Shown in pieces: positions 1,251 through 14,905 of a DNA stretch of 33,510 nucleotides. Position numbers and translations under genes: made by a program. The notes beneath the pieces were generated by a model. The model saw nothing but the letters and a program-made list of their open reading frames with translations, searched no databases and had not been told where the DNA came from. The DNA is from a virus (lineage: Duplodnaviria; Heunggongvirae; Uroviricota; Caudoviricetes), in the IMG/VR virus record IMGVR_UViG_2703718823_000008. The stretch is one strand, 5' to 3'. Position 1 is the stretch's first letter, and every line of letters starts with the position of its first letter.

Positions 1251-1895
1251 CTATTTAACTGTCCATGCCGGGCTGAAATCCACTTCCTGAAATAACTCAG
1301 TTAGCCCGCTAATTTGTTTAAGTCTCAGTACTTCATCCTGATCCATACCCAACTCAGTGCCAATGCGTTCATCTGCCCATCCCAAGCGTGAAAGATCTCT
1401 TACAATATCAGACACTGAGTCTATCTGGTGTTTCCCCCTAGCCCGGTTATGTCGAATGGTTGCGGCAATGCGTGCGGCTTGCCCTTTTCTCTCTGGATTA
1501 ATACAGGCTACAGGCAGCCAGCCCCTCAGACGTTTTCCTGTAACTGATTCTCTGCCCAATAACTGACGATGAAAACCATCCACCACCAGATAATGATTCT
1601 TCTCCTCTGACACCACCACCGGTTGTGTGAAACCATCTTTTTCCAGTGACTGCTTCAGCAGTTTCTTCTCACTTGGTGCCATGACATTGGGGTTATAATC
1701 GTTGGCTACCACCTCATCCGCTTTCACCCACAGCACACAGTCTACAGGCTCCTGTGCAAAAGGACTGACTTCATGCAGTACCCTGCGCAGATGGTTAAGG
1801 GCTCGTATGGACTCTTCTTCGGGCTGTTCCCGACTGAAGTACTGACGAATCATGTTGCTTAGTACATCCATCTCAGGCGTCACAGAATCCCCCAT
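1251..1895 (-). CDS. ibrB: ParB-like nuclease domain protein (IbrB family)
   Basis: 214-aa ORF overlapping the upstream PAPS-reductase-like gene by 16 nt (operon); ParB/Srx-like N-terminal region; pairing with an IbrA-like gene. Confidence 0.8.
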   Translation of the reverse strand: MGDSVTPEMDVLSNMIRQYFSREQPEEESIRALNHLRRVLHEVSPFAQEPVDCVLWVKADEVVANDYNPNVMAPSEKKLLKQSLEKDGFTQPVVVSEEKNHYLVVDGFHRQLLGRESVTGKRLRGWLPVACINPERKGQAARIAATIRHNRARGKHQIDSVSDIVRDLSRLGWADERIGTELGMDQDEVLRLKQISGLTELFQEVDFSPAWTVK

Positions 1896-3106
1896 TCTTT
1901 CCTCCTTTCCTTCATTCGTTGCAGATAACGCTCATAGTGCCGGGGTTTGTTCGGACTGAAGGAGAGGGTCCGGCACCAGAAGTCATTCTTTATGAGCGTC
2001 TTACAGATACGTCGCCAGGACGGGATATCCCGGCTCCCCAGGTCATTCTCCTGTTCATCCGGGATATCATCCGGGAAGCCCCGCGTCTGATACCAGCGCA
2101 GGTAGACTGCAATTTTGTTACGGTAATGTTCTGCTGTTCTTTCTGGCATAACATCCAGCATGAACATTGCGTAGCTGCGCCAGGTATGATGAGCCGGTTT
2201 TGTGATTCGTTTACGCAGAGCAAAATAGGCACCGCTTTCATTGGCATAAAGAGCGCCACTGGCAGCCCCTGACACTCGCTCACACATCCTGGCCCAGGTT
2301 TCCGGCTCCAGAACATGGTAAAGCCACAGCCCCTTACGCTGTTCCGGGCCAAAGGGCTCACAAACACGCATGTTGCGTAACGACACTCCGGCACGGTACA
2401 TTAGGTCGTACAGGGGATTGTAGATGGCGCGGGTTCTTGAGTTATACGTCCATATATCATTTGTTTTCCAGTCATACAATGGATACATGGTGTAGTAAAA
2501 ACCATCGGGTGAAGCGGTGGTCCAGGGTTTATCATCTGCATATCTCAGTTTGCGCTGAGACACCAGTCCCATAAAGCGATTGAGCGATTCATCAGCACGA
2601 ACACCAGTTAGTATTCCCACTCCACATCGGTTACCGGCAAACCAGGAAGAAAATGCCGGAACAAATTCTTCAAACGTCATGGCATACCGATAAAATGGGA
2701 AATACGACATATCTGTAATAGCGTCATCTGGTGGCTGACGAACCCATTCTACACCTGGCTCCCAACATATCCATTCTGGCTGAAACTGAGAGACGCCATT
2801 TACCGTAGTCAGAGGAAGCGCTACCCAGTAAAAATTGTCTGTCACATGCCGGTACATTTCCCTCATCTTTTGGATATGATTAATCGTGCACTGATATTGG
2901 GCTTCCCAGTCAATGAATAAAACCGAAAAACGACGTTTTTTTCTACTGGCGACTTCTGCCACAAGATGGAAAAGCACAGTAGAGTCTTTGCCACCAGAAA
3001 AAGACAAGCAGACCTCATTAAACGTTTCGAACAACCATTCAATGCGATGGATTGCTGCTGACAGAACATTTTCCCCTGTGCTGATTTTTGTTATGGTTCC
3101 TGACAT
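1880..3106 (-). CDS. ibrA: PAPS reductase-like PP-loop protein (IbrA family)
   Basis: 408-aa ORF with PP-loop motif SGGKDS near the N-terminus (FSGGKDSTVLFHL); low-GC flanks; AT-rich promoter-like region at 3107-3260. Confidence 0.85.
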   Translation of the reverse strand: MSGTITKISTGENVLSAAIHRIEWLFETFNEVCLSFSGGKDSTVLFHLVAEVASRKKRRFSVLFIDWEAQYQCTINHIQKMREMYRHVTDNFYWVALPLTTVNGVSQFQPEWICWEPGVEWVRQPPDDAITDMSYFPFYRYAMTFEEFVPAFSSWFAGNRCGVGILTGVRADESLNRFMGLVSQRKLRYADDKPWTTASPDGFYYTMYPLYDWKTNDIWTYNSRTRAIYNPLYDLMYRAGVSLRNMRVCEPFGPEQRKGLWLYHVLEPETWARMCERVSGAASGALYANESGAYFALRKRITKPAHHTWRSYAMFMLDVMPERTAEHYRNKIAVYLRWYQTRGFPDDIPDEQENDLGSRDIPSWRRICKTLIKNDFWCRTLSFSPNKPRHYERYLQRMKERRKEWGIL

Positions 3107-4614: not shown

Positions 4615-4974
4615 ATGCTCATAGATTTGGTTTTACCTTACCCGCCAACGGTGAACACCTACTGGCGTCGTCGTGGCAGCACATATTTTATCTCGGAGGA
4701 GGGAAAGCGCTATCGCCGTGCTGTGGCGCTTATTGTTAACCAGCAGCGGCTGAAATTAAGCCTGTCCGGAAGGCTGGTAATCAGGATTATTGCAGAGCCA
4801 CCGGATAAGCGCCGCCGTGACCTGGACAATATTCTGAAAGCGCCGCTGGATGCGCTTACGCATGCGGGGTTGTTAATGGACGATGAGCAGTTTGATGAAA
4901 TCAATATTGTGCGTGGCCTGCCTGTTCCTGGCGGGCGGCTGGGGATAAAAATCACAGAACTGGAGTGCGCATGA
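4615..4974 (+). CDS. rusA: Holliday junction resolvase RusA
   Basis: 119-aa ORF; N-terminal LPYPPTVNTYWR and central DxDN region characteristic of RusA; GAGG SD. Confidence 0.9.
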   Translation: MLIDLVLPYPPTVNTYWRRRGSTYFISEEGKRYRRAVALIVNQQRLKLSLSGRLVIRIIAEPPDKRRRDLDNILKAPLDALTHAGLLMDDEQFDEINIVRGLPVPGGRLGIKITELECA

Positions 4975-5654
4975 ATAACCAGTATTTACAGTTTGTTCGT
5001 GAGCAACTCATGATTGCCACTGCGGATCTCAGTGGGGCGACAAAAGGCCAGCTGGAAGCCTGGCAGGAGAATGCCCTGTTCGATACAGGGCGTTACAGAC
5101 GCAAAAAAATTCGTTATCGCGATGAGGTAACCGGAAAAATGATCACGCGGGATAATCAACCGATCCCGGGTAAACAATCACTGGCGAAAGGCTCATCAAT
5201 TGCGCTGGTCAGTCCGGTTGAGTTTGCAACATCATCGTGGCGGCGTGCCGTTCTGGAACTGGAAGAACATCAGAAGGCGTGGTTACTGTGGTGCTACAGT
5301 GGAAATGTTTGCTGGGAAGATCAGGTCACTATAACACAATGGGTATGGGGTGAGTTTAAAGCTCAGGCTGGTACCAGAAAAATTGCAGGGAAAACGCTGG
5401 ATCGTCTGAAGAAACTGATTTGGCTGGCGGCACAGGATGTGAAGAGTGAGCTGGCAGGGCGTGAGACCTATGAACATCAGGAGTTAGCGGTGTTCATAGG
5501 AGTTGCTAAATCTACATGGACAAAAACACACAGGCCTCACTGGTTGGCTATGCGGGGTAGTGCAGAGATGCTGGACAGGGATGCTCTTATTTCAGTAATG
5601 CGGGTACGTTCACGGCAAAAGTCGATTAATTTAGAACCATATCTTGCAAAATAG
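4971..5654 (+). CDS. Late-gene antiterminator Q-like protein
   Basis: Start overlaps the rusA stop (ATGA); position immediately after rusA and before stacked terminators and the late genes; family assignment is by position and loose recall, not a verified motif. Confidence 0.65.
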   Translation: MNNQYLQFVREQLMIATADLSGATKGQLEAWQENALFDTGRYRRKKIRYRDEVTGKMITRDNQPIPGKQSLAKGSSIALVSPVEFATSSWRRAVLELEEHQKAWLLWCYSGNVCWEDQVTITQWVWGEFKAQAGTRKIAGKTLDRLKKLIWLAAQDVKSELAGRETYEHQELAVFIGVAKSTWTKTHRPHWLAMRGSAEMLDRDALISVMRVRSRQKSINLEPYLAK

Positions 5655-5725
5655 AACTGAAGAGCATATATTCCGTGTAAATCTGATATTTTGCAGATTT
5701 TGTTCGCGATGGCAAAGTAAGCAAA

Positions 5726-5748
5726 CCCCGCCGCCGAGCGGGTTTTTT
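5726..5748 (+). terminator. Intrinsic terminator-like hairpin with T6 tail downstream of the Q-like gene
   Basis: CCCCGCCGCCGAGCGGG followed by TTTTTT. Confidence 0.45.
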
Positions 5749-5976: not shown

Positions 5977-5983
5977 CNNAGAC

Positions 5984-6181
5984 ATGCTGAAACAGCAGGA
6001 TATGACAGAAACCGCCAGAGTGGTGTTTAATGAATTAAGCGTCACCGAACCGGCGACAGTCGGGGAGATAGCGCAGAATACTTACCTTTCACGCGAACGC
6101 TGCCAGTTAATACTGACCCAGCTGGTTATGGCGGGTCTGGCAGACTATCAGTTCGGTTGTTACAGACGCCTTCCGCAGTGA
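5984..6181 (+). CDS. Small hypothetical protein (65 aa), possibly a helix-turn-helix protein
   Basis: ORF immediately after the tR'-like terminator, followed by its own terminator; no confident motif. Confidence 0.4.
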   Translation: MLKQQDMTETARVVFNELSVTEPATVGEIAQNTYLSRERCQLILTQLVMAGLADYQFGCYRRLPQ

Positions 6182-6191
6182 AGGCTTTTTT
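6168..6191 (+). terminator. Intrinsic terminator after the small ORF
   Basis: GCCTTC-CGCAGT-GAAGGC hairpin followed by T6; the stop codon lies within the hairpin. Confidence 0.5.
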
Positions 6192-6331
6192 ATTTGTGGT
6201 AAATGGGCGGCTGGTGGGTGTTAGGGGCACCCCCCAGCCATCTGCTCATGCGTTGGGTTCACAAGCAAACCTCAGGCCCACTGCTTTGCGCAAAAGCAGA
6301 ATGAGCCTATCAGAGACAGGCTTAATGATCC

Positions 6332-7390
6332 ATGCTTAATACTGTAAAAATATCCAGTTGTGAGTTAATCAACGCCGACTGCCTTGAATTTATCCGGTCG
6401 TTACCCGAAAATTCTGTTGACCTGATAGTCACGGACCCGCCGTACTTTAAAGTGAAGCCTGAGGGCTGGGATAACCAGTGGAAGGGCGACGATGATTACC
6501 TGAAGTGGCTGGACCAGTGTCTTGCGCAGTTCTGGCGGGTGCTGAAACCTGCCGGAAGTCTTTACCTGTTCTGTGGCCATCGCCTGGCATCTGATATCGA
6601 AATCATGATGCGTGAACACTTCAGTGTGCTGAACCATATTATCTGGGCAAAGCCGTCCGGACGCTGGAACGGGTGCAACAAGGAAAGCCTGAGGGCGTAT
6701 TTCCCCGCCACAGAGCGCATTCTGTTCGCGGAACATTATCAGGGGCCGTATCGCCCGAAAGATGCCGGGTATGAGGCGAAGGGCAGGGCACTGAAACAGC
6801 ATGTGATGGCCCCGCTGATTTCTTACTTTCGTGATGCGCGTGCTGCCCTGGGGATAACGGCAAAACAGATAGTGGATGCCACAGGAAAGAAAAATATGGT
6901 GTCGCACTGGTTCAGTGCCAGCCAGTGGCAGTTACCGGACGAAAGCGATTATCTGAAATTACAGGCGCTGTTTGCCCGGGTGGCAGAAGAGAAGCATCAG
7001 CGCGGAGAACTGGAAAAGCCACATCACCAACTGGTCAGCACATACAGTGAACTGAACCGGCAGTATACGGAACTGCAGAGTGAATATAAGCATCTGCGGC
7101 GGTATTTCGGTGTGACGGTGCGGGTGCCGTACACCGATGTGTGGACGCATAAACCGGTGCAGTACTATCCCGGGAAACATCCGTGCGAAAAACCGGCAGA
7201 AATGCTGCAGCAGATAATCAGTGCGAGCAGTCGTCCGGGTGACCTGGTTGCAGATTTCTTCATGGGGTCGGGTTCGACAGTCAAAGCAGCGATGGTGTTG
7301 GGGCGTCGTGCTACAGGCGTTGAGCTGGAGACTGAACGTTTTGAGCAGACGGTCAGGGAAGTTCAGGATTTAGCCAGCCAGAACGGATGA
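6332..7390 (+). CDS. Orphan DNA methyltransferase (N6-adenine or N4-cytosine, beta class)
   Basis: DPPY motif near the N-terminus (LIVTDPPYF) and FxGxG S-adenosylmethionine-binding motif (FFMGSGST) near the C-terminus; no adjacent restriction endonuclease gene. Confidence 0.9.
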   Translation: MLNTVKISSCELINADCLEFIRSLPENSVDLIVTDPPYFKVKPEGWDNQWKGDDDYLKWLDQCLAQFWRVLKPAGSLYLFCGHRLASDIEIMMREHFSVLNHIIWAKPSGRWNGCNKESLRAYFPATERILFAEHYQGPYRPKDAGYEAKGRALKQHVMAPLISYFRDARAALGITAKQIVDATGKKNMVSHWFSASQWQLPDESDYLKLQALFARVAEEKHQRGELEKPHHQLVSTYSELNRQYTELQSEYKHLRRYFGVTVRVPYTDVWTHKPVQYYPGKHPCEKPAEMLQQIISASSRPGDLVADFFMGSGSTVKAAMVLGRRATGVELETERFEQTVREVQDLASQNG

Positions 7391-7430
7391 TATTGCAGGA
7401 TTAGTTACGTACCGTTATTATCCTGCGCCC

Positions 7431-7506
7431 GGCCCTTTAGCTCAGTGGTGAGAGCGAGCGACTCATAATCGCCAGGTCGCTGGTTCAAATCCAGCAAGGG
7501 CCACCA
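7431..7506 (+). tRNA. tRNA with CAT anticodon, Ile2 (lysidine) type, resembling the host ileX/ileY tRNA and the ileZ of Stx phages
   Basis: Manual cloverleaf fold: acceptor GGCCCTT/AAGGGCC, D-loop with GG, anticodon loop CTCATAA, T-loop TTCAAAT, 3' CCA encoded. Confidence 0.85.
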
Positions 7507-7515
7507 TATCACATA

Positions 7516-7592
7516 CCGCCATTAGCTCATCGGGATAGAGCGCCAGCCTTCGGAGCTGGCTGCGCGGGGTTCGAGTCCTCGATGGCGGTCCA
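7516..7592 (+). tRNA. tRNA-Arg with TCG anticodon
   Basis: Manual cloverleaf fold: acceptor CCGCCAT/ATGGCGG, anticodon stem CCAGC/GCTGG with loop CTTCGGA (G at position 37), T-loop TTCGAGT, 3' CCA encoded. Confidence 0.75.
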
Positions 7593-7870
7593 TTATCTGC
7601 ATCATGCGTTGTTAGCTCTGATGAGTGAATCATTGTCTTTTGAGCAACAGGCTATCATATAAGATAGTCTCAGATTTCCTTGTTTATTCTCGCCGGATGC
7701 TTCGTAGATATTTGCAGGCATCTGTATGCAGGGGTATTATTGCGGCATATATCATCCGGAAAAATAAAAACTACATGCTGATCCGGAGATGATAGTTACA
7801 AGTCCTCCCGGATCCCGCATATTTACTATATTTTATAGATAATTGTTCTTGTTAATATGGAGATGGATAA

Positions 7871-8299
7871 ATGTATTGCCGTGCTGTACCGGTTCTTGTT
7901 TTGATATTAGCCAGTCTGACAACTGGCTGCACAAAAGATGTATCGACAAATAATTATGATGCTTCGCTGCATCACTCAGATAAATTAATAAAGTCGCAAA
8001 ATTTGAGCTTATCGGAACGTACCCCTGATGCCAGTGAAGAAATCCGGCAGTATGCCATTCAGGTCAGGGAAGCCATAGAAGAACAGTTAAAGGATGCGGG
8101 TAAGTATTCAGGAAAAGAGTGTTCACTGAGAATGTATATGGCCCCGAATGGTCTTCTGCTACAGGTTAAAAGAGAAAGCGGTGATCCCGATTTATGTCGT
8201 GAAGCGATGAATGCAGTAAAGAATGCTGATATACCATCACCACCGTCTTCAGGAGTATATAAAGCATTTAGAAATGGCGTGCTGGATTTTAAACTCTGA
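7871..8299 (+). CDS. Lipoprotein carrying a stand-alone TolA C-terminal (domain III)-like domain
   Basis: 142-aa ORF; signal peptide with lipobox-like LTTGC (Thr at +2); C-terminal 80 aa aligns by eye to E. coli TolA domain III (GKxC-LR---APnG-LL, GDP-LC, IP-PPS, VY--F-N--LDFK); GGAG SD; low-GC gene. Confidence 0.8.
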   Translation: MYCRAVPVLVLILASLTTGCTKDVSTNNYDASLHHSDKLIKSQNLSLSERTPDASEEIRQYAIQVREAIEEQLKDAGKYSGKECSLRMYMAPNGLLLQVKRESGDPDLCREAMNAVKNADIPSPPSSGVYKAFRNGVLDFKL

Positions 8300-8321
8300 C
8301 TGGGGGAGAAGATTTTCTCCT

Positions 8322-8612
8322 GTCCAGATGATTTTGGGGTGCTGGAAAGATATTGTGCTGTGAAGTGTTAAATTCCTCACAATTCAGTAAGTTGACAGTT
8401 GCCTGTCAGACTGGGCATTTGTTAAAAAAATTTCGCATGGTGAATCCCCCTGTGCGGAGGGGCGACTGGTGAACGGTATGATCTCTTTGATGATCGTAAG
8501 CGAGAATACGCGGGTTTAGTGTCACCGGGCTGAACTCACCGGGAGGCACCCGGCACCATGCTCATGGTGATACAGAAATGCGGCTTCAGCCCCTCTCTGG
8601 AGGGGCTTTCTT
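8322..8612 (+). repeat. Structured noncoding repeat unit A (about 270-290 bp) ending in an intrinsic terminator; candidate sRNA or 3'-UTR element
   Basis: Shares conserved blocks with units B and C (GTTAAAT-CCTCACA-TTCAG; TGAATCCCCCTG-GCGGAGGGGC; ACCGGGAGGCACCCGGCAC-ATG); terminator GCCCCTC-TCTG-GAGGGGC plus T-tail at 8589-8612. Confidence 0.6.
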
Positions 8613-8618
8613 ATGGAC

Positions 8619-8765: not shown

Positions 8766-8930
8766 CCGGGTGGCCTGGTTGCAGATTTCTTCATGGGGTA
8801 GGGTTCGGCAGTTAAAGCAGCGATGGCGCTGGGGCGTCGTGCTATAGGCGTTGAGCTGGATACCGGGCGTTTTGAACAGACTGCGCAGGCAATCAGGGAT
8901 ATATTTATCGGTAGCTGTTTGCAGAAGTAA
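8766..8930 (+). pseudogene. 3' fragment of a second, diverged DNA methyltransferase gene (homologous to 7232-7390) with an in-frame TAG
   Basis: Nucleotide homology to the 3' end of the intact methyltransferase; translation gives LVADFFMG*GSAVKAAMALGRRAIGVELDTGRFEQT; no upstream part of the gene. Confidence 0.7.
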
Positions 8931-9004: not shown

Positions 9005-9281
9005 ATTGCAGATGATTGTTAGCTGGATATCAGTTACCTCATGGAAATGTTAAATGACTCACAATTCGGTTGATGGACTATTGTCTGATTGATGGAAGTC
9101 TTGTAAAAACGAGCCAGCATAGTGAATCCCCCTGTGCGGAGGGGCGTCTGACATGGTCTCCATAGCGATGGTCACAATACGCAGATTCAGTAGTCAGGCT
9201 GAATCTACCGGGAGGCACCCGGCACTATGCTGCTTATGGTGTATACACAGCGATCGGCCCCTCTCCTGAGGGGCTTTTTTT
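9005..9281 (+). repeat. Structured noncoding repeat unit B ending in an intrinsic terminator
   Basis: Same conserved blocks as unit A; terminator GCCCCTC-TCCT-GAGGGGC plus T7 at 9257-9281. Confidence 0.6.
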
Positions 9282-9289
9282 GTGCGGGA

Positions 9290-9543
9290 AAAGGCTGTGT
9301 TGTTAAATGTTAAATCCCTCACAGTTCAGATGGTTGATGCTTGCCTGTCTGACGGGGAGTTGTTAAAAAAGTTCTGCATGGTGAATCCCCCTGAGCGGAG
9401 GGGCATATCAGCGCAGGTGTTTCTACTCTATCCTTTCTGTGCGGGTTCAGGTGCTGATACTGAACTCACCGGGAGGCACCCGGCACCATGTAGTATACAG
9501 AGATTAGGCATACATCCAGGCTCCTCATTGCAGGAGCCTTTTT
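9290..9543 (+). repeat. Structured noncoding repeat unit C ending in an intrinsic terminator
   Basis: Same conserved blocks as units A and B; terminator AGGCTCCT-CATTGC-AGGAGCCT plus T4 at 9518-9543 (different stem sequence, same structure). Confidence 0.6.
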
Positions 9544-9549
9544 ACATGC

Positions 9550-9767: not shown

Positions 9768-11756
9768 ATGGCATTTAAACACTACGATGTGGTCAGGGCG
9801 GCATCGCCGTCAGACCTTGCTGAACGACTGACACAAAAACTGAAGGAGGGGTGGCAGCCATTTGGCAGCCCTGTCGCCATCACGCCTTATACCCTGATGC
9901 AGGCTATTGCGGCGGAAGGTGATGTCACCACGCCGGTGCTGGTTAAACCATCGGGTGACGGGGAGACGGCTATCAGCAAGACCGGTGAGCCTGAATATTA
10001 TTATGTTGTCGCGCTGGCGGGTCAGTCAAATGGTATGTCTTTTGGAGAGGGAGTACCGTTACCTGATTCTTATGATCGCCCTGATCCGAGAATTAAGCAG
10101 CTTGCCCGTCGACGTACCGTTACGCCGCGAGGCGTTCCCTGCACCTATAACGATGTTATTCCGGCAGATCATTGTCTTCATGATGTGATGGATATGAGTG
10201 AAAAAAATCACCCCCGGGCAGACCTCAATAAAGGTCAGTATGGTTGTGTGGGTCAGGGACTGCATATTGCCAAAAAACTGTTACCGTTTATACCGGCGAA
10301 TGCGGGCATTCTTCTGGTTCCATGCTGTCGTGGAGGCTCGGGAGTGACTACAGGTAATGAGGGAACATTTAACGCCTCTTCCGGGGCAAGCCCTGATTCT
10401 GCATTGTGGGGAGCTGATAAGCCGCTGTACCAGGATCTGTTAAGTCGCACGAAAGTCGCGCTGGCTAAAAATCCCGGAAATATCCTGCTGGCGGTAATCT
10501 GGATGCAGGGGGAGAGTGATCTGGCTTCAGGAAGCCAGAGTCATAATGCTCTTTTTACTGGCATGGTACAGAAATTCCGTGCTGACATCGCTGATATGTC
10601 AGGGCAGTGCGTGGGGGGCTCGGCACTGAGCGTTCCGTGGGTTTGTGGCGATACGACGCATTACTGGAAAGAAAAATATGCTGCGTCTTATGAAACTGTA
10701 TACGGTGGATATAAAAATAAGGCAGCGCAGAATATTCACTTTGTCCCTTTCATGGTTGATGGAAGCGGGGTAAATGTGCAGACCAATAATCCGGCAGAAG
10801 ATCCTGATATTGAAGGTATTGGCTACTCCGGTTCGAAGTGGCGAGACAGTTCTGTCAGCTGGACGTCAGGTGACAGGGCAAGCCATTTCGGTTCATGGGC
10901 GCGGCGTGGAATTATTTCAGATCGTCTTGCAACCGCAATTCTGACCCACGCAGGCAAATACCCGGCGTTTATCACCGGGCGGTCAGAAACGGTAGTTGCA
11001 GGAGATGAACGGGAAAACGTTACATCCGGAAATTTCCCGTCACCTGTGGAGGATGCTGCGTTATCACAGGATGCACCTCAGAGAAGAACGGTTGTTGAGT
11101 ATAATTCAGCTGTTGAGAAAGACAGCCTCGGTGGTAACTGGGCAGCCCAGCACTGGAATGCCCGGGACGGTGTCGCCGAGTTTGTTAATGATGAAAGCAG
11201 ACAGGTGCTGAAGATTAAGCAGCATGAGGGCAAACAGGGACCGTGGATGCTGTCAGCAGGAGTATCAGCTGAAGATGCCCGTGCTCTGTATGAAAATGGC
11301 GGTGAAATAAAACTTGAATTCAGGTTGCCGGATGGTACCCAGGTTGCAGATGACAAATACCTCTTTGGTGTTTACCTGCCAGTTTCCGGGTGGACTCAGG
11401 AAGGCAACGGCAGCAATATGATGGCCTCCTTTTTCACTCAGACAAAAGCCAGTAACCTGGATGTCATGTATCACGGTAAAACACAGCCTAATACAAAAAT
11501 TGAGTCATTCGGTGCGGTTAATAACAACTGGCACACGCTTGTCTTTAAATATAAAGGAGGCGGCAATCACCAGGTTATTCCGGTACTTGACGGAGAAGAG
11601 AAAACAGGTTTTGCACTGAAAGAAGGTCCGGTCACTTCTGCCTTTACGGTGGATAACATCACAGTGACAGGTATCAGCGCAAATCAGGGAAAATCTTATC
11701 CTGTCATGTTCCGCAGTATCATGGTAAGCATTAACCAGGCAACCTCTTCATCATAA
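9768..11756 (+). CDS. NanS-p-like sialate O-acetylesterase (DUF1737-like N-terminus plus SGNH-hydrolase-like domain)
   Basis: 662-aa ORF; N-terminus MAFKHYDVVRA...GWQPFGSPV resembles the DUF1737 domain of prophage NanS-p/YjhS-type esterases as recalled; GGGAGG SD; position between the stx-equivalent slot and the lysis cassette. Confidence 0.8.
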   Translation: MAFKHYDVVRAASPSDLAERLTQKLKEGWQPFGSPVAITPYTLMQAIAAEGDVTTPVLVKPSGDGETAISKTGEPEYYYVVALAGQSNGMSFGEGVPLPDSYDRPDPRIKQLARRRTVTPRGVPCTYNDVIPADHCLHDVMDMSEKNHPRADLNKGQYGCVGQGLHIAKKLLPFIPANAGILLVPCCRGGSGVTTGNEGTFNASSGASPDSALWGADKPLYQDLLSRTKVALAKNPGNILLAVIWMQGESDLASGSQSHNALFTGMVQKFRADIADMSGQCVGGSALSVPWVCGDTTHYWKEKYAASYETVYGGYKNKAAQNIHFVPFMVDGSGVNVQTNNPAEDPDIEGIGYSGSKWRDSSVSWTSGDRASHFGSWARRGIISDRLATAILTHAGKYPAFITGRSETVVAGDERENVTSGNFPSPVEDAALSQDAPQRRTVVEYNSAVEKDSLGGNWAAQHWNARDGVAEFVNDESRQVLKIKQHEGKQGPWMLSAGVSAEDARALYENGGEIKLEFRLPDGTQVADDKYLFGVYLPVSGWTQEGNGSNMMASFFTQTKASNLDVMYHGKTQPNTKIESFGAVNNNWHTLVFKYKGGGNHQVIPVLDGEEKTGFALKEGPVTSAFTVDNITVTGISANQGKSYPVMFRSIMVSINQATSSS

Positions 11757-12466: not shown

Positions 12467-12682
12467 ATGTACCAGATGGAAAAAATCACAACAGGTTTGT
12501 CATACACCACGTCAGCGGTGGGAACGGGCTACTGGTTCCTGCAGTTGCTGGACAGGGTTTCCCCGTCTCAGTGGGCGGCAATAGGCGTGCTGGGGAGTCT
12601 GCTGTTTGGGCTGCTGACATATCTGACGAACCTGTATTTCAAAATTAAAGAAGACCGGCGTAAGGCGGCGCGGGGAGAGTAA
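12467..12682 (+). CDS. S: Holin, phage 21 S-type pinholin with dual start (Met1 and Met4)
   Basis: 71-aa ORF closely matching the phage 21 S pinholin ([22 protein letters not shown]...[22 protein letters not shown]) as recalled. Confidence 0.85.
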
Positions 12683-12686
12683 GCTG

Positions 12687-13220
12687 ATGAGCAGGAAACT
12701 CCGCTATGGTTTATCGGCTGCCGTTCTGGCGCTGATTGGTGCAGGGGCGTCTGCGCCTGAAATCCTCGACCAGTTTCTGGATGAAAAAGAAGGCAACCAC
12801 ACCACGGCATACCGTGATGGCGCGGGTATCTGGACCATCTGCCGTGGAGCCACCCGGGTGGATGGTAAGCCTGTTATTCCTGGCATGAAGTTGACGAAGG
12901 AAAAATGCGACCAGGTTAACGCCATTGAACGTGATAAGGCGCTGGCATGGGTGGAGAAAAACATCAAAGTGCCACTGACCGAACCCCAGAAAGCGGGTAT
13001 TGCGTCATTCTGCCCGTATAACATTGGCCCAGGTAAGTGTTTCCCGTCGACGTTTTATAAACGAATTAATGCAGGCGATCGCAGGGGAGCGTGTGAGGCG
13101 ATTCGCTGGTGGATTAAGGACGGTGGCAGAGACTGCCGTATTCGCTCAAATAATTGCTACGGTCAGATATCCCGTCGTGACCAGGAGAGCGCGCTGGCGT
13201 GCTGGGGAATCGACAGATAA
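12687..13220 (+). CDS. R: SAR endolysin (lysozyme-like with N-terminal signal-anchor-release helix)
   Basis: 177-aa ORF; N-terminal hydrophobic SAR-like segment LSAAVLALIGAGA; lysozyme-like core; directly follows the holin. Confidence 0.9.
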   Translation: MSRKLRYGLSAAVLALIGAGASAPEILDQFLDEKEGNHTTAYRDGAGIWTICRGATRVDGKPVIPGMKLTKEKCDQVNAIERDKALAWVEKNIKVPLTEPQKAGIASFCPYNIGPGKCFPSTFYKRINAGDRRGACEAIRWWIKDGGRDCRIRSNNCYGQISRRDQESALACWGIDR

Positions 13221-13313
13221 GCAGAATATTTTGCTGAAAAATGACGTTGACCAACGCGGACGGATAACACGAAATCCTGCGAACTGGCAAAACCTAGTGA
13301 ATAAAAGTAAAAA

Positions 13314-13346
13314 CCCCGTTTGTTGGCAGCAAGCGGGGTTTTGTGT
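13314..13346 (+). terminator. Strong intrinsic terminator-like hairpin between the endolysin and Rz
   Basis: 9-bp stem CCCCGTTTG/CAAGCGGGG with 7-nt loop, followed by TTTTGTGTTT; A-run on the 5' side makes it potentially bidirectional. Confidence 0.5.
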
Positions 13347-13417
13347 TTCCTGACTCCGGAAAAGTCAAAGGAGAAAGTGTGTTTAATTTTAGCAAACTGA
13401 TTCGGGAGATTCGAGTG

Positions 13418-13516
13418 ATGGCTGAAAAATTATCCACCTGGAAGTTCATCCTTATCTGGCTGGTGTTTGTGATTATGGCCTCCGGTTATTTCATCGGTCA
13501 GATACGCTGGTGGTGA
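13418..13516 (+). CDS. Small single-TM peptide (32 aa; [32 protein letters not shown])
   Basis: GGAG about 10 nt upstream; stop overlaps the Rz start region; below the ORF-track length cut-off. Confidence 0.3.
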
Positions 13517-13517
13517 A

Positions 13518-14012
13518 ATGAACCGCGTTCTGTGTGTGGTCATTATTGCCTTGCTGGTGGCCTGTGGTGCGCTTAGTCTGGGGCTGAATCATTACCGTGA
13601 TAACGCCATCACCTACAAAGCGCAGCGCGATAAAAAAGCCAGAGAGCTGGAGCTGGCAAACGCAACCATTACTGACATGCAGCAGCGCCAGCGTGATGTT
13701 GCTGCGCTTGATGCCAGATACTCAAGGGAATTAGCCGATGCGAGAGCTGAAAATGAAACTCTGCGTGCTGATGTTGCCGCTGGTCGTAAGCGCCTGCGGC
13801 TCAACGCCACCTGCCCCGGTACCGTGCGTGAAGCCACCGGCACCTCCGGCGTGGATAATGCAACCGGCCCCCGACTGGCAGACACCGCTGAACGGGATTA
13901 TTTCAACCTCAGAGAACGGTTGATGACAATGCAGAAGCAGCTGGAAGGGGCGCAGGAATATATACGCACTCAGTGCACTAAGCTGGCTTTTTATTATCCG
14001 GAGGATACATGA
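13518..14012 (+). CDS. Rz: Spanin, inner-membrane subunit Rz
   Basis: 164-aa ORF strongly resembling lambda Rz ([16 protein letters not shown]...[15 protein letters not shown]...[20 protein letters not shown]). Confidence 0.9.
13738..13923 (+). CDS. Rz1: Spanin, outer-membrane lipoprotein subunit Rz1 (embedded in the +1 frame of Rz)
   Basis: 61-aa ORF with lipobox LVVSAC and proline-rich [27 protein letters not shown] matching lambda Rz1. Confidence 0.8.
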
Positions 14013-14572: not shown

Positions 14573-14905
14573 ATGAAAATGAAAAGAAATCTTCCGTTAA
14601 TTATTTTGTTGTCTTCTCTGGTTATGGGCTGTACGCAACATAAAACAGATATGCCCCGACAGTTGGTTAAGGCATTACCACAATATCCGGCCTATGCAGC
14701 GGCAAATTATATAAAGGGACGGGTTGATGTGAAGTTTGATATTGGTGCTGATGGTACTGTCACCCGAATTGAGTTTATCCGTTCAGAGCCGCACCATCTG
14801 TTTGATGAGCAGGTTGTAAAAGCGATGGCAAAATGGCGATTTGAGAAGGACAGGCCGCGTAAAGGCGTGAAGAAAACGTTTATCTTTAGTCCTTCTGCAC
14901 CCTGA
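14573..14905 (+). CDS. Lipoprotein carrying a stand-alone TonB C-terminal domain
   Basis: Signal peptide with lipobox LVMGC (Thr at +2); C-terminal region aligns by eye to E. coli TonB C-terminus (PQYPA-A----I-G-V-VKFD---DG-V...S-P---F......AM--WR-E); promoter-like TTGATG and TAGAAT plus palindrome AGAATAAG-A-CTTATTCT at 14542-14558 upstream. Confidence 0.8.
   Translation: MKMKRNLPLIILLSSLVMGCTQHKTDMPRQLVKALPQYPAYAAANYIKGRVDVKFDIGADGTVTRIEFIRSEPHHLFDEQVVKAMAKWRFEKDRPRKGVKKTFIFSPSAP

Follow-up and report, generated by a model that had tools for sequence, protein, structure and literature searches.

The 33,510-nt stretch of tailed-phage DNA considered here (IMG/VR record IMGVR_UViG_2703718823_000008, Caudoviricetes; hereafter the window, meaning the whole stretch at its full length) carries a gene for a stand-alone copy of the C-terminal domain of the host protein TolA (domain III, or TolAIII) behind a predicted lipoprotein signal. 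The gene lies in the slot where Shiga toxin (Stx) phages keep stx2AB. The presence of the TolA domain is confirmed well beyond chance, the strand with which TolA binds its ligands is retained letter for letter, and the domain is under purifying selection. As for its function, we tentatively prefer, with somewhat less than even confidence, the view that the main selected benefit is protection of the lysogen or infected cell against group A colicins and Ff-type phages, for which the TolAIII copy would serve as a decoy.

Reading frame, lipoprotein signal and TolA domain III

The gene and its parts are arranged as follows.

7871-8299, + strand: coding sequence of a prolipoprotein with TolA domain III, 142 aa
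7871-7930, + strand: signal peptide with lipobox L-T-T-G-C and Thr at +2 (Cys20 codon at 7928-7930)
7931-8032, + strand: flexible linker, residues 21-54 (predicted local distance difference test, pLDDT, <50 for residues 1-51; ratio of non-synonymous to synonymous substitution rates, dN/dS, 0.36-0.83)
8033-8296, + strand: TolA domain III, residues 55-142 (disulfide pair Cys84/Cys109; C-terminal strand L138-D139-F140-K141)

A first-pass annotation of the DNA had placed the gene at 7601-8299. A real open reading frame on the + strand is found there, but it does not begin at 7601: the single convincing gene inside this interval is the 142-codon coding sequence that starts at 7871, with its ATG preceded by GGAG (7859-7862) at a spacing of 8 nt. 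The 270 nt from 7601 to 7870 are non-coding, the first ~18 nt being homologous to Stx phages and the remainder forming a ~250-nt AT-rich leader. The N-terminus of the predicted product reads MYCRAVPVLVLILASLTTGC followed by TKD, and the LTTGC lipoprotein signal seen in the first pass is indeed present, with a basic n-region (R4), an uncharged h-region (AVPVLVLILAS) and a lipobox ending in Cys20. These features satisfy the PROSITE PS51257-type lipoprotein pattern, namely [LIVMFWSTAG](2)-[LIVMFYSTAGCQ]-[AGS]-C with the Cys at 15-35, a basic n-region and an uncharged h-region. Cys20 shows no variation among 47 diverse members of the family; the lipobox pattern fits 168 of the 222 short homologs, and Asp is found at +2 in none of these 168. 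The gene is predicted to encode a lipoprotein, for which lipidation, cleavage by signal peptidase II and sorting to the outer membrane would be expected from the sequence.

The Pfam model PF06519 (TolA_C) matches the product with E=3.4e-22 (78.9 bits against a cutoff of 25; profile positions 8-96 of 96). In a phmmer search of the PDB, residues 55-141 were aligned without gaps to residues 334-420 of E. coli TolA (87 residues, ~50% identity, E=7e-25), and the entries 1s62, 3qdp and 1tol were matched at E ~1e-24; HMMER thus reproduces the alignment to the C-terminal motifs of TolA on which the first-pass annotation had been built. That annotation had also named profile and structure comparison as the way to check the domain, and the structural part agrees with the profile match. 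In the AlphaFold2 (AF2) model, residues 1-51 are disordered and residues 52-142 are folded (pLDDT 71-89 across residues 52-130). A Foldseek search with this model found chain A of 3QDR, the colicin A complex (template modelling score, TM, 0.82; root-mean-square deviation 1.9 Å), chain B of 2X9A, the g3p complex (TM 0.86), and 1TOL. No match at E<=0.001 was obtained with Foldseek among the viral structures of BFVD.

The window protein shares with E. coli TolA domain III (1S62, 3QDP/3QDR, 1TOL, 2X9A; PF06519) the fold, the disulfide pair and the LDFK strand. Cys84 and Cys109 align with the TolA pair C363/C388, and both are unvarying in the 47 diverse homologs. Since neither these two cysteines nor the lipobox Cys vary and Asp does not occur at +2, a periplasmic location of the protein is probable. 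The strand L138-D139-F140-K141 corresponds to L417-D418-F419-K420 of TolA (offset 279), with the same letters, and is invariant throughout the E. coli family. In TolA, strand beta-3 of domain III is the site of beta-strand addition for the N-terminus of TolB and for g3p-N1 (PMC7391070); colicin N uses the same site as TolB and g3p, and the changes D418P or K420P abolish binding of TolB, ColN and g3p and give a full tol phenotype (PMC4339652). The separate colicin A site of TolA (PMC3365938) is partly retained, L375, L376, K379 and K396 being kept and K368, D377 and P380 altered; single changes in this interface are tolerated in TolA (PMC3365938).

The protein differs from E. coli TolA in having a lipoprotein signal and a short disordered linker, and it is predicted to sit on the opposite (outer) membrane. 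That it is a genuine TolA was rejected: it has 142 residues against 421, matches only the last ~90 positions of the TolA models, lacks both the transmembrane domain I and the helical domain II and has a lipoprotein signal peptide instead, and its gene lies outside the tol-pal operon, in a prophage, between Q, the methylase and the tRNAs on one side and nanS-p and the lysis genes on the other.

Family, names and selection

The sequence itself is not new. Near-identical cassette DNA is present in 126 of 5,426 complete E. coli genomes, and the gene family (>= ~79% nucleotide identity, that is, at least about this value) in 897 of them (~16%), where it is chromosomal and nearly always single-copy. 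It is wrongly annotated as TolA: the Prokaryotic Genome Annotation Pipeline (PGAP) names it 'cell envelope integrity protein TolA' because the cutoff of TIGR02794 is passed on the last 90 profile positions alone (72.6 against 59.45; positions 270-361 of 362 only). The model NF007065 fails, with 99.8 bits against a cutoff of 213 and a match to positions 298-386 of 387 only. Hundreds of genomes carry a wrong second 'tolA' annotation. In PHROGs the protein is assigned to phrog_5772, for which the function is listed as unknown.

When the cassette was compared by megablast with 50,697 phage records, no match was obtained, and tblastn against the phage records found mEp460_ev081 only; the family is essentially a prophage gene. 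When single divergent representatives were followed to viral loci, P0039 led to one and P0048 to none. A HMMER search of 1.84 billion representatives returned 292 clusters, with short proteins making up about half of the best 150; the named members come from Escherichia, Shigella, Citrobacter, Klebsiella, Enterobacter, Serratia, Raoultella and Gibbsiella. None of these representatives is a full-length TolA closer to the window protein than ~50% identity, and therefore the capture of the domain is old.

In E. coli prophages three subfamilies can be distinguished, with 63-70% protein identity to one another, and all of them have the lipobox Cys, the disulfide cysteines and the C-terminal motif. 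Between subfamilies dN/dS is 0.23-0.31 for the domain, which is therefore under purifying selection, and 0.36-0.83 for the linker. All 85 collected genes, representing 17 alleles, are intact, and this, together with the dN/dS of the domain, led to rejection of a decaying fragment; some alleles have a frameshift at the 3' end. Although the PGAP name, the TIGR02794 score and these 3'-frameshifted alleles might speak for a genuine TolA or a functionless remnant, the architecture and the selection data effectively refute both, and we give such a reading hardly any credence.

A second, divergent TolA_C lipoprotein directly follows the first in non-Stx-type lambdoid prophages (strain MS6198) and in phage mEp460_ev081. 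This paralog has 124-131 residues and an FVAGC lipobox, is 22-25% identical to the window protein (Pfam E=1e-14) and belongs to a 90%-identity cluster with 696 members. Its genes were located at two loci, in both of which the pair is directly upstream of the holin gene.

L004, 7547-7921: second TolA_C paralog
L003, 7580-7975: second TolA_C paralog

Stand-alone TolA_C proteins of 134-144 residues are encoded also in Enterobacter (6001-6435 of loci L088 and L089) and in Gibbsiella (6001-6405 of locus L087), where the surroundings are conserved, non-prophage and chromosomal, with metabolic and regulator genes. The occurrence of TolAIII lipoproteins in these chromosomes points to a role in the envelope or in protection of the cell, and not to a purely lytic function.

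Our full-text literature searches turned up no work on the function of a phage TolAIII lipoprotein. The TolA-annotated gene ESA_03048 in the lambdoid prophage 3 of Cronobacter sakazakii BAA-894, which we liken to the window gene by its annotation alone, was mentioned in one sentence in 2010, and a role in phage internalisation was guessed by its authors (PMC2833190). For the present family a role in the phage's own entry was rejected, since a lipoprotein made by the lysogen cannot serve an incoming virion; moreover, nothing ties these tailed phages to Tol.

Possible roles of the lipoprotein

In the decoy reading, the prolipoprotein would be cleaved and lipidated at Cys20 and would be delivered by Lol sorting to the inner leaflet of the outer membrane, because the +2 residue is Thr and not Asp. 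The flexible linker of ~34 residues would hold the folded TolAIII copy out into the periplasm, and because the protein is without TolA domains I and II it could not be energised by TolQR. Such an uncoupled domain would compete with host TolA for ligands that bind by beta-strand addition, namely the N-terminus of TolB, the translocation domains of colicins N and A (probably also of K and E1) and g3p-N1 of filamentous phages. TolAIII binds the colicins and g3p with affinities of ~1 µM and TolB with one of ~40 µM (PMC4339652), and therefore a low dose could trap the invaders at little cost. A very high dose, as Q-driven late transcription is expected to give, would sequester TolB as well and make the outer membrane looser. 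Given the conserved strand for TolB, ColN and g3p, a decoy and a perturbation of Tol-Pal are both mechanistically reasonable.

Periplasmic TolAIII reportedly made cells colicin-tolerant in the hands of Levengood-Freyermuth, Click and Webster in 1993, and that work and a 1998 study of Wan and Baneyx are the ones cited for the use of periplasmic TolAIII in protein release. Export of TolAIII with a signal sequence is a means of releasing periplasmic protein from E. coli (PMC6195910). This recombinant protein is a laboratory analogue of the proposed mechanism, being likewise a free exported domain that leaves the outer membrane leaky; it is, however, artificial, soluble and identical to that of the host, whereas the window protein is natural, diverged, selected and predicted to be lipid-anchored. 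The converse arrangement also exists: periplasmic g3p-N1 sequesters TolA and confers resistance to colicin A and phage (PMC10424213).

Several points weigh against the decoy. First, a dominant-negative TolAIII should cost envelope integrity. Second, the known Tol-dependent phages are only filamentous ones, which require conjugative pili, and the benefit of exclusion may be narrow. Third, the colicin A site has only two of its three cation-pi lysines left, K368 being changed to Tyr, and none of the PADLOC defence models matches the window protein. Fourth, in a consensus scan the leader of the window shows only a weak 9/12 sigma-70 match (7711-7740). Finally, localisation, ligand binding, timing of expression and phenotype are all inferred from sequence, and the uniform position of the gene between Q and the lysis genes would fit a late, lysis-linked role equally well.

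This last role is the strongest rival, although we consider it unlikely. It holds that the protein, made in abundance from the Q-driven transcript, would titrate the TolB N-terminus, block mobilisation of Pal and impose a transient tol phenotype, and that the outer membrane would then bleb, vesiculate and leak, which would hasten lysis or favour the exit of virions or cargo. The elements of transcription that bear on it are the following.

5644-5672, + strand: pR'-like promoter, directly after Q (consensus scan)
5727-5742, + strand: tR'-like terminator (consensus scan)
7619-7870, + strand: AT-rich non-coding leader with a candidate promoter of its own (weak sigma-70 match)

The first-pass annotation had placed the gene under the Q-dependent late promoter by its position, and the gene is in fact co-directional with the late operon, here and in 80 of 80 IMG/VR loci, and is found between Q and the holin/endolysin genes wherever the flanks are present. 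It lies downstream of the pR'/tR'-like element, which by its position would be the source of late transcription through the cassette; the same hairpin as the tR'-like terminator of the window is found 3' of Q in locus L004. In the non-Stx-type prophages, the TolAIII gene pair lies immediately 5' of the holin. Late weakening would also agree with the full conservation of the TolB-binding strand, with the leakiness of cells that contain free periplasmic TolAIII (PMC6195910) and with the hypervesiculation of tol mutants (PMC7391070). On the other side, the phage already has a complete holin-endolysin-Rz system, the low affinity of TolA for TolB (~40 µM) would demand a large excess of the lipoprotein, and the homologous lipoproteins of Enterobacter and Gibbsiella are encoded at non-prophage loci. 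Furthermore, expression outside the late operon is suggested by the major subfamily, in which a 10/12 sigma-70 match (TTGAGC-18-TATAAT), the best consensus match of the region, ends 30 nt before the ATG, and a terminator lies downstream of the TolA_C gene pair. A putative promoter and a terminator around the pair have the layout of a classic moron unit and suggest expression in the lysogen. Between the subfamilies, homology is limited to the stretch from about the lipobox codon to the stop codon, and no conserved promoter was found in their leaders; since these are unrelated, the comparison lends no support to a promoter in this window.

In the pR'/tR' region, the bases at 5978-5979 are ambiguous (nn) and come after a long run of T, and an identical E. 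coli prophage (L001) has ~113 more bases from Q to the next gene than the window has. The window may come from a draft assembly that collapsed at 5978-5979.

According to another view, which we regard as quite unlikely, the TolAIII fold has been repurposed as a generic domain for beta-strand addition, with a partner that is not among the classical TolA ligands, such as another protein of the periplasm or outer membrane, the toxin of a competitor, or some component that other tailed phages use. An identity of just 50% to E. coli TolAIII, with no closer full-length TolA and hence an old capture, would leave room for this, several surface positions of the colicin A site do differ, and the very divergent paralog that is often its neighbour (22-25% identity) suggests a diversified specificity. 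Conservation is, however, strongest in the strand that binds TolB, ColN and g3p and in its surroundings, and no data here point to an alternative partner.

A further observation agrees with the decoy reading. The same prophage encodes a second lipoprotein that ends in a ligand-binding domain of a force transducer, in this case TonB.

14576-14905, + strand: lipoprotein (LVMGC) with a TonB C-terminal domain (PF03544, E=5.8e-15), downstream of Rz

Its sequence starts MKMKRNLPLIILLSSLVMGC. This TonB_C lipoprotein is present in 415 of the 5,426 complete E. coli genomes and also in Stx1a phages. PHROGs labels the family 'Rz-like spanin', probably because of its position, and the label looks like a mis-annotation. 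By analogy with the TolA protein, it could be a decoy for TonB, and the presence in one prophage of lipid-anchored copies of the ligand-binding ends of both force transducers fits a decoy strategy. It is conceivable, though on balance doubtful, that lambdoid enterobacterial prophages routinely deploy outer-membrane decoys of TolAIII (in two paralogous lineages) and TonB_C against Tol- and Ton-dependent colicins and phages. If they do, a widespread and unrecognised form of immunity by host mimicry lies hidden under the names 'TolA' and 'TonB family' in about 1 in 6 E. coli genomes, and the decoys would disarm invaders where these emerge from the outer membrane.

Small phage lipoproteins of the outer membrane that exclude superinfection are known from T5 (Llp) and from phi80, N15 and HK022 (Cor), all of which act by inactivating FhuA. 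The window protein resembles Llp and Cor as a small accessory phage lipoprotein that would block an import route from the periplasmic side; it differs from them in that their target is the receptor FhuA, whereas it would mimic the domain of an energy transducer, and there is no sequence relationship. A decoy based on host mimicry would be a new variation on phage outer-membrane lipoproteins that block import routes. The first-pass annotation had foreseen a new cargo function for the stx slot; the sequence is common and known, and to this extent the claim has to be moderated, but a decoy function in this slot would be new. Should the decoy be real, it is a common prophage gene that determines how sensitive E. 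coli is to group A colicins and filamentous phages, in strains that include Stx-negative relatives of the E. coli that make Shiga toxin (STEC) and many extraintestinal (ExPEC) and avian (APEC) pathogenic E. coli. Competition in the gut, the use of colicins to control STEC in cattle and the use of engineered bacteriocins would all be touched by this, and the protein would offer research on Tol-Pal a natural, evolved dominant-negative inhibitor of the TolA-TolB interaction with ready sequence variants.

The stx slot and its neighbours

The gene stands in the following surroundings.

4965-5654, + strand: antiterminator Q (PF06323, E=1.2e-88)
6332-7390, + strand: DNA methyltransferase, the left flank common to Stx2 phages (PF01555, E=1.1e-42)
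7431-7506, + strand: tRNA(CAT; ileZ-type) (ARAGORN, Rfam, PGAP)
7516-7592, + strand: tRNA-Arg(TCG) (ARAGORN, Rfam, PGAP)
7619-8376, + strand: cargo cassette in place of tRNA-Arg(3), stx2A and stx2B (blastn against Stx2_EH2201)
8406-8618, 9088-9283 and 9348-9549, + strand: three tandem copies of the STnc100 sRNA family (Rfam RF02076)
9768-11756, + strand: NanS-p-type SASA esterase, the right flank of the stx slot (PF03629, PF08410, PF20350; PGAP)
12467-14012, + strand: lysis cassette of holin, endolysin and Rz (PF04971, PF00959, PF03245)

This is the neighbourhood described in the first pass, with Q, the methyltransferase and the tRNAs upstream and the NanS-p-like gene downstream, and the PGAP annotation of the identical E. 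coli prophage gives the same gene order. The equivalence to the stx slot, claimed there as well, was borne out at the level of DNA. In a blastn comparison with the Stx2a phage Stx2_EH2201, homology extends over 5980-7618, breaks and starts again from 8377; therefore the 758 bp of 7619-8376 replace the 1,440 bp that hold the third tRNA and stx2A/stx2B. The exchange is a clean cassette swap. The methylase is 95-96% identical to that of Stx2a phages, and the methylase and tRNAs together are 96% identical to Stx2_EH2201. The low GC content noted in the first pass is also real, being 0.38-0.43 in the cassette against about 0.50-0.56 in the flanks. In its deviant base composition and its place between flanks shared with Stx2a phages, the cassette resembles a moron in Hendrix's sense. 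In the 84 loci carrying a window-type gene, no stx was found within 6 kb.

The cassette resembles stx2AB and other cargo between Q and the lysis genes in its flanks (methylase, ileZ/argN tRNAs, STnc100, nanS-p), its orientation and its low GC content. It differs in the probable target of its product, which would be the bacterial envelope and not, as for Stx2, a eukaryotic cell. The slot would thus swap a toxin for envelope-directed cargo beside repeated STnc100 modules. These three copies (repeat families D1, D3, D5 and D7) score 172, 121 and 164 bits against a gathering score of 47.

The STnc100 copies occupy the space from the cargo gene to nanS-p, the right edge of the cassette (8377) abutting the first of them, and other prophages have an STnc100-like motif upstream of their TolA-like gene. 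Such repeats may act as recombination anchors in cargo exchange. Downstream of the cassette, the 116 nt of 8766-8881 repeat the 3' end of the methylase gene (7235-7350) with 90% identity. PGAP labels this copy as a methyltransferase pseudogene fragment, and it suggests a second, decayed slot scaffold in tandem. Finally, in the early region, 1251-3106 on the - strand corresponds to a divergently oriented accessory module, for which the PGAP annotation of the identical prophage gives an IbrB-like domain protein and a phosphoadenosine phosphosulfate reductase.

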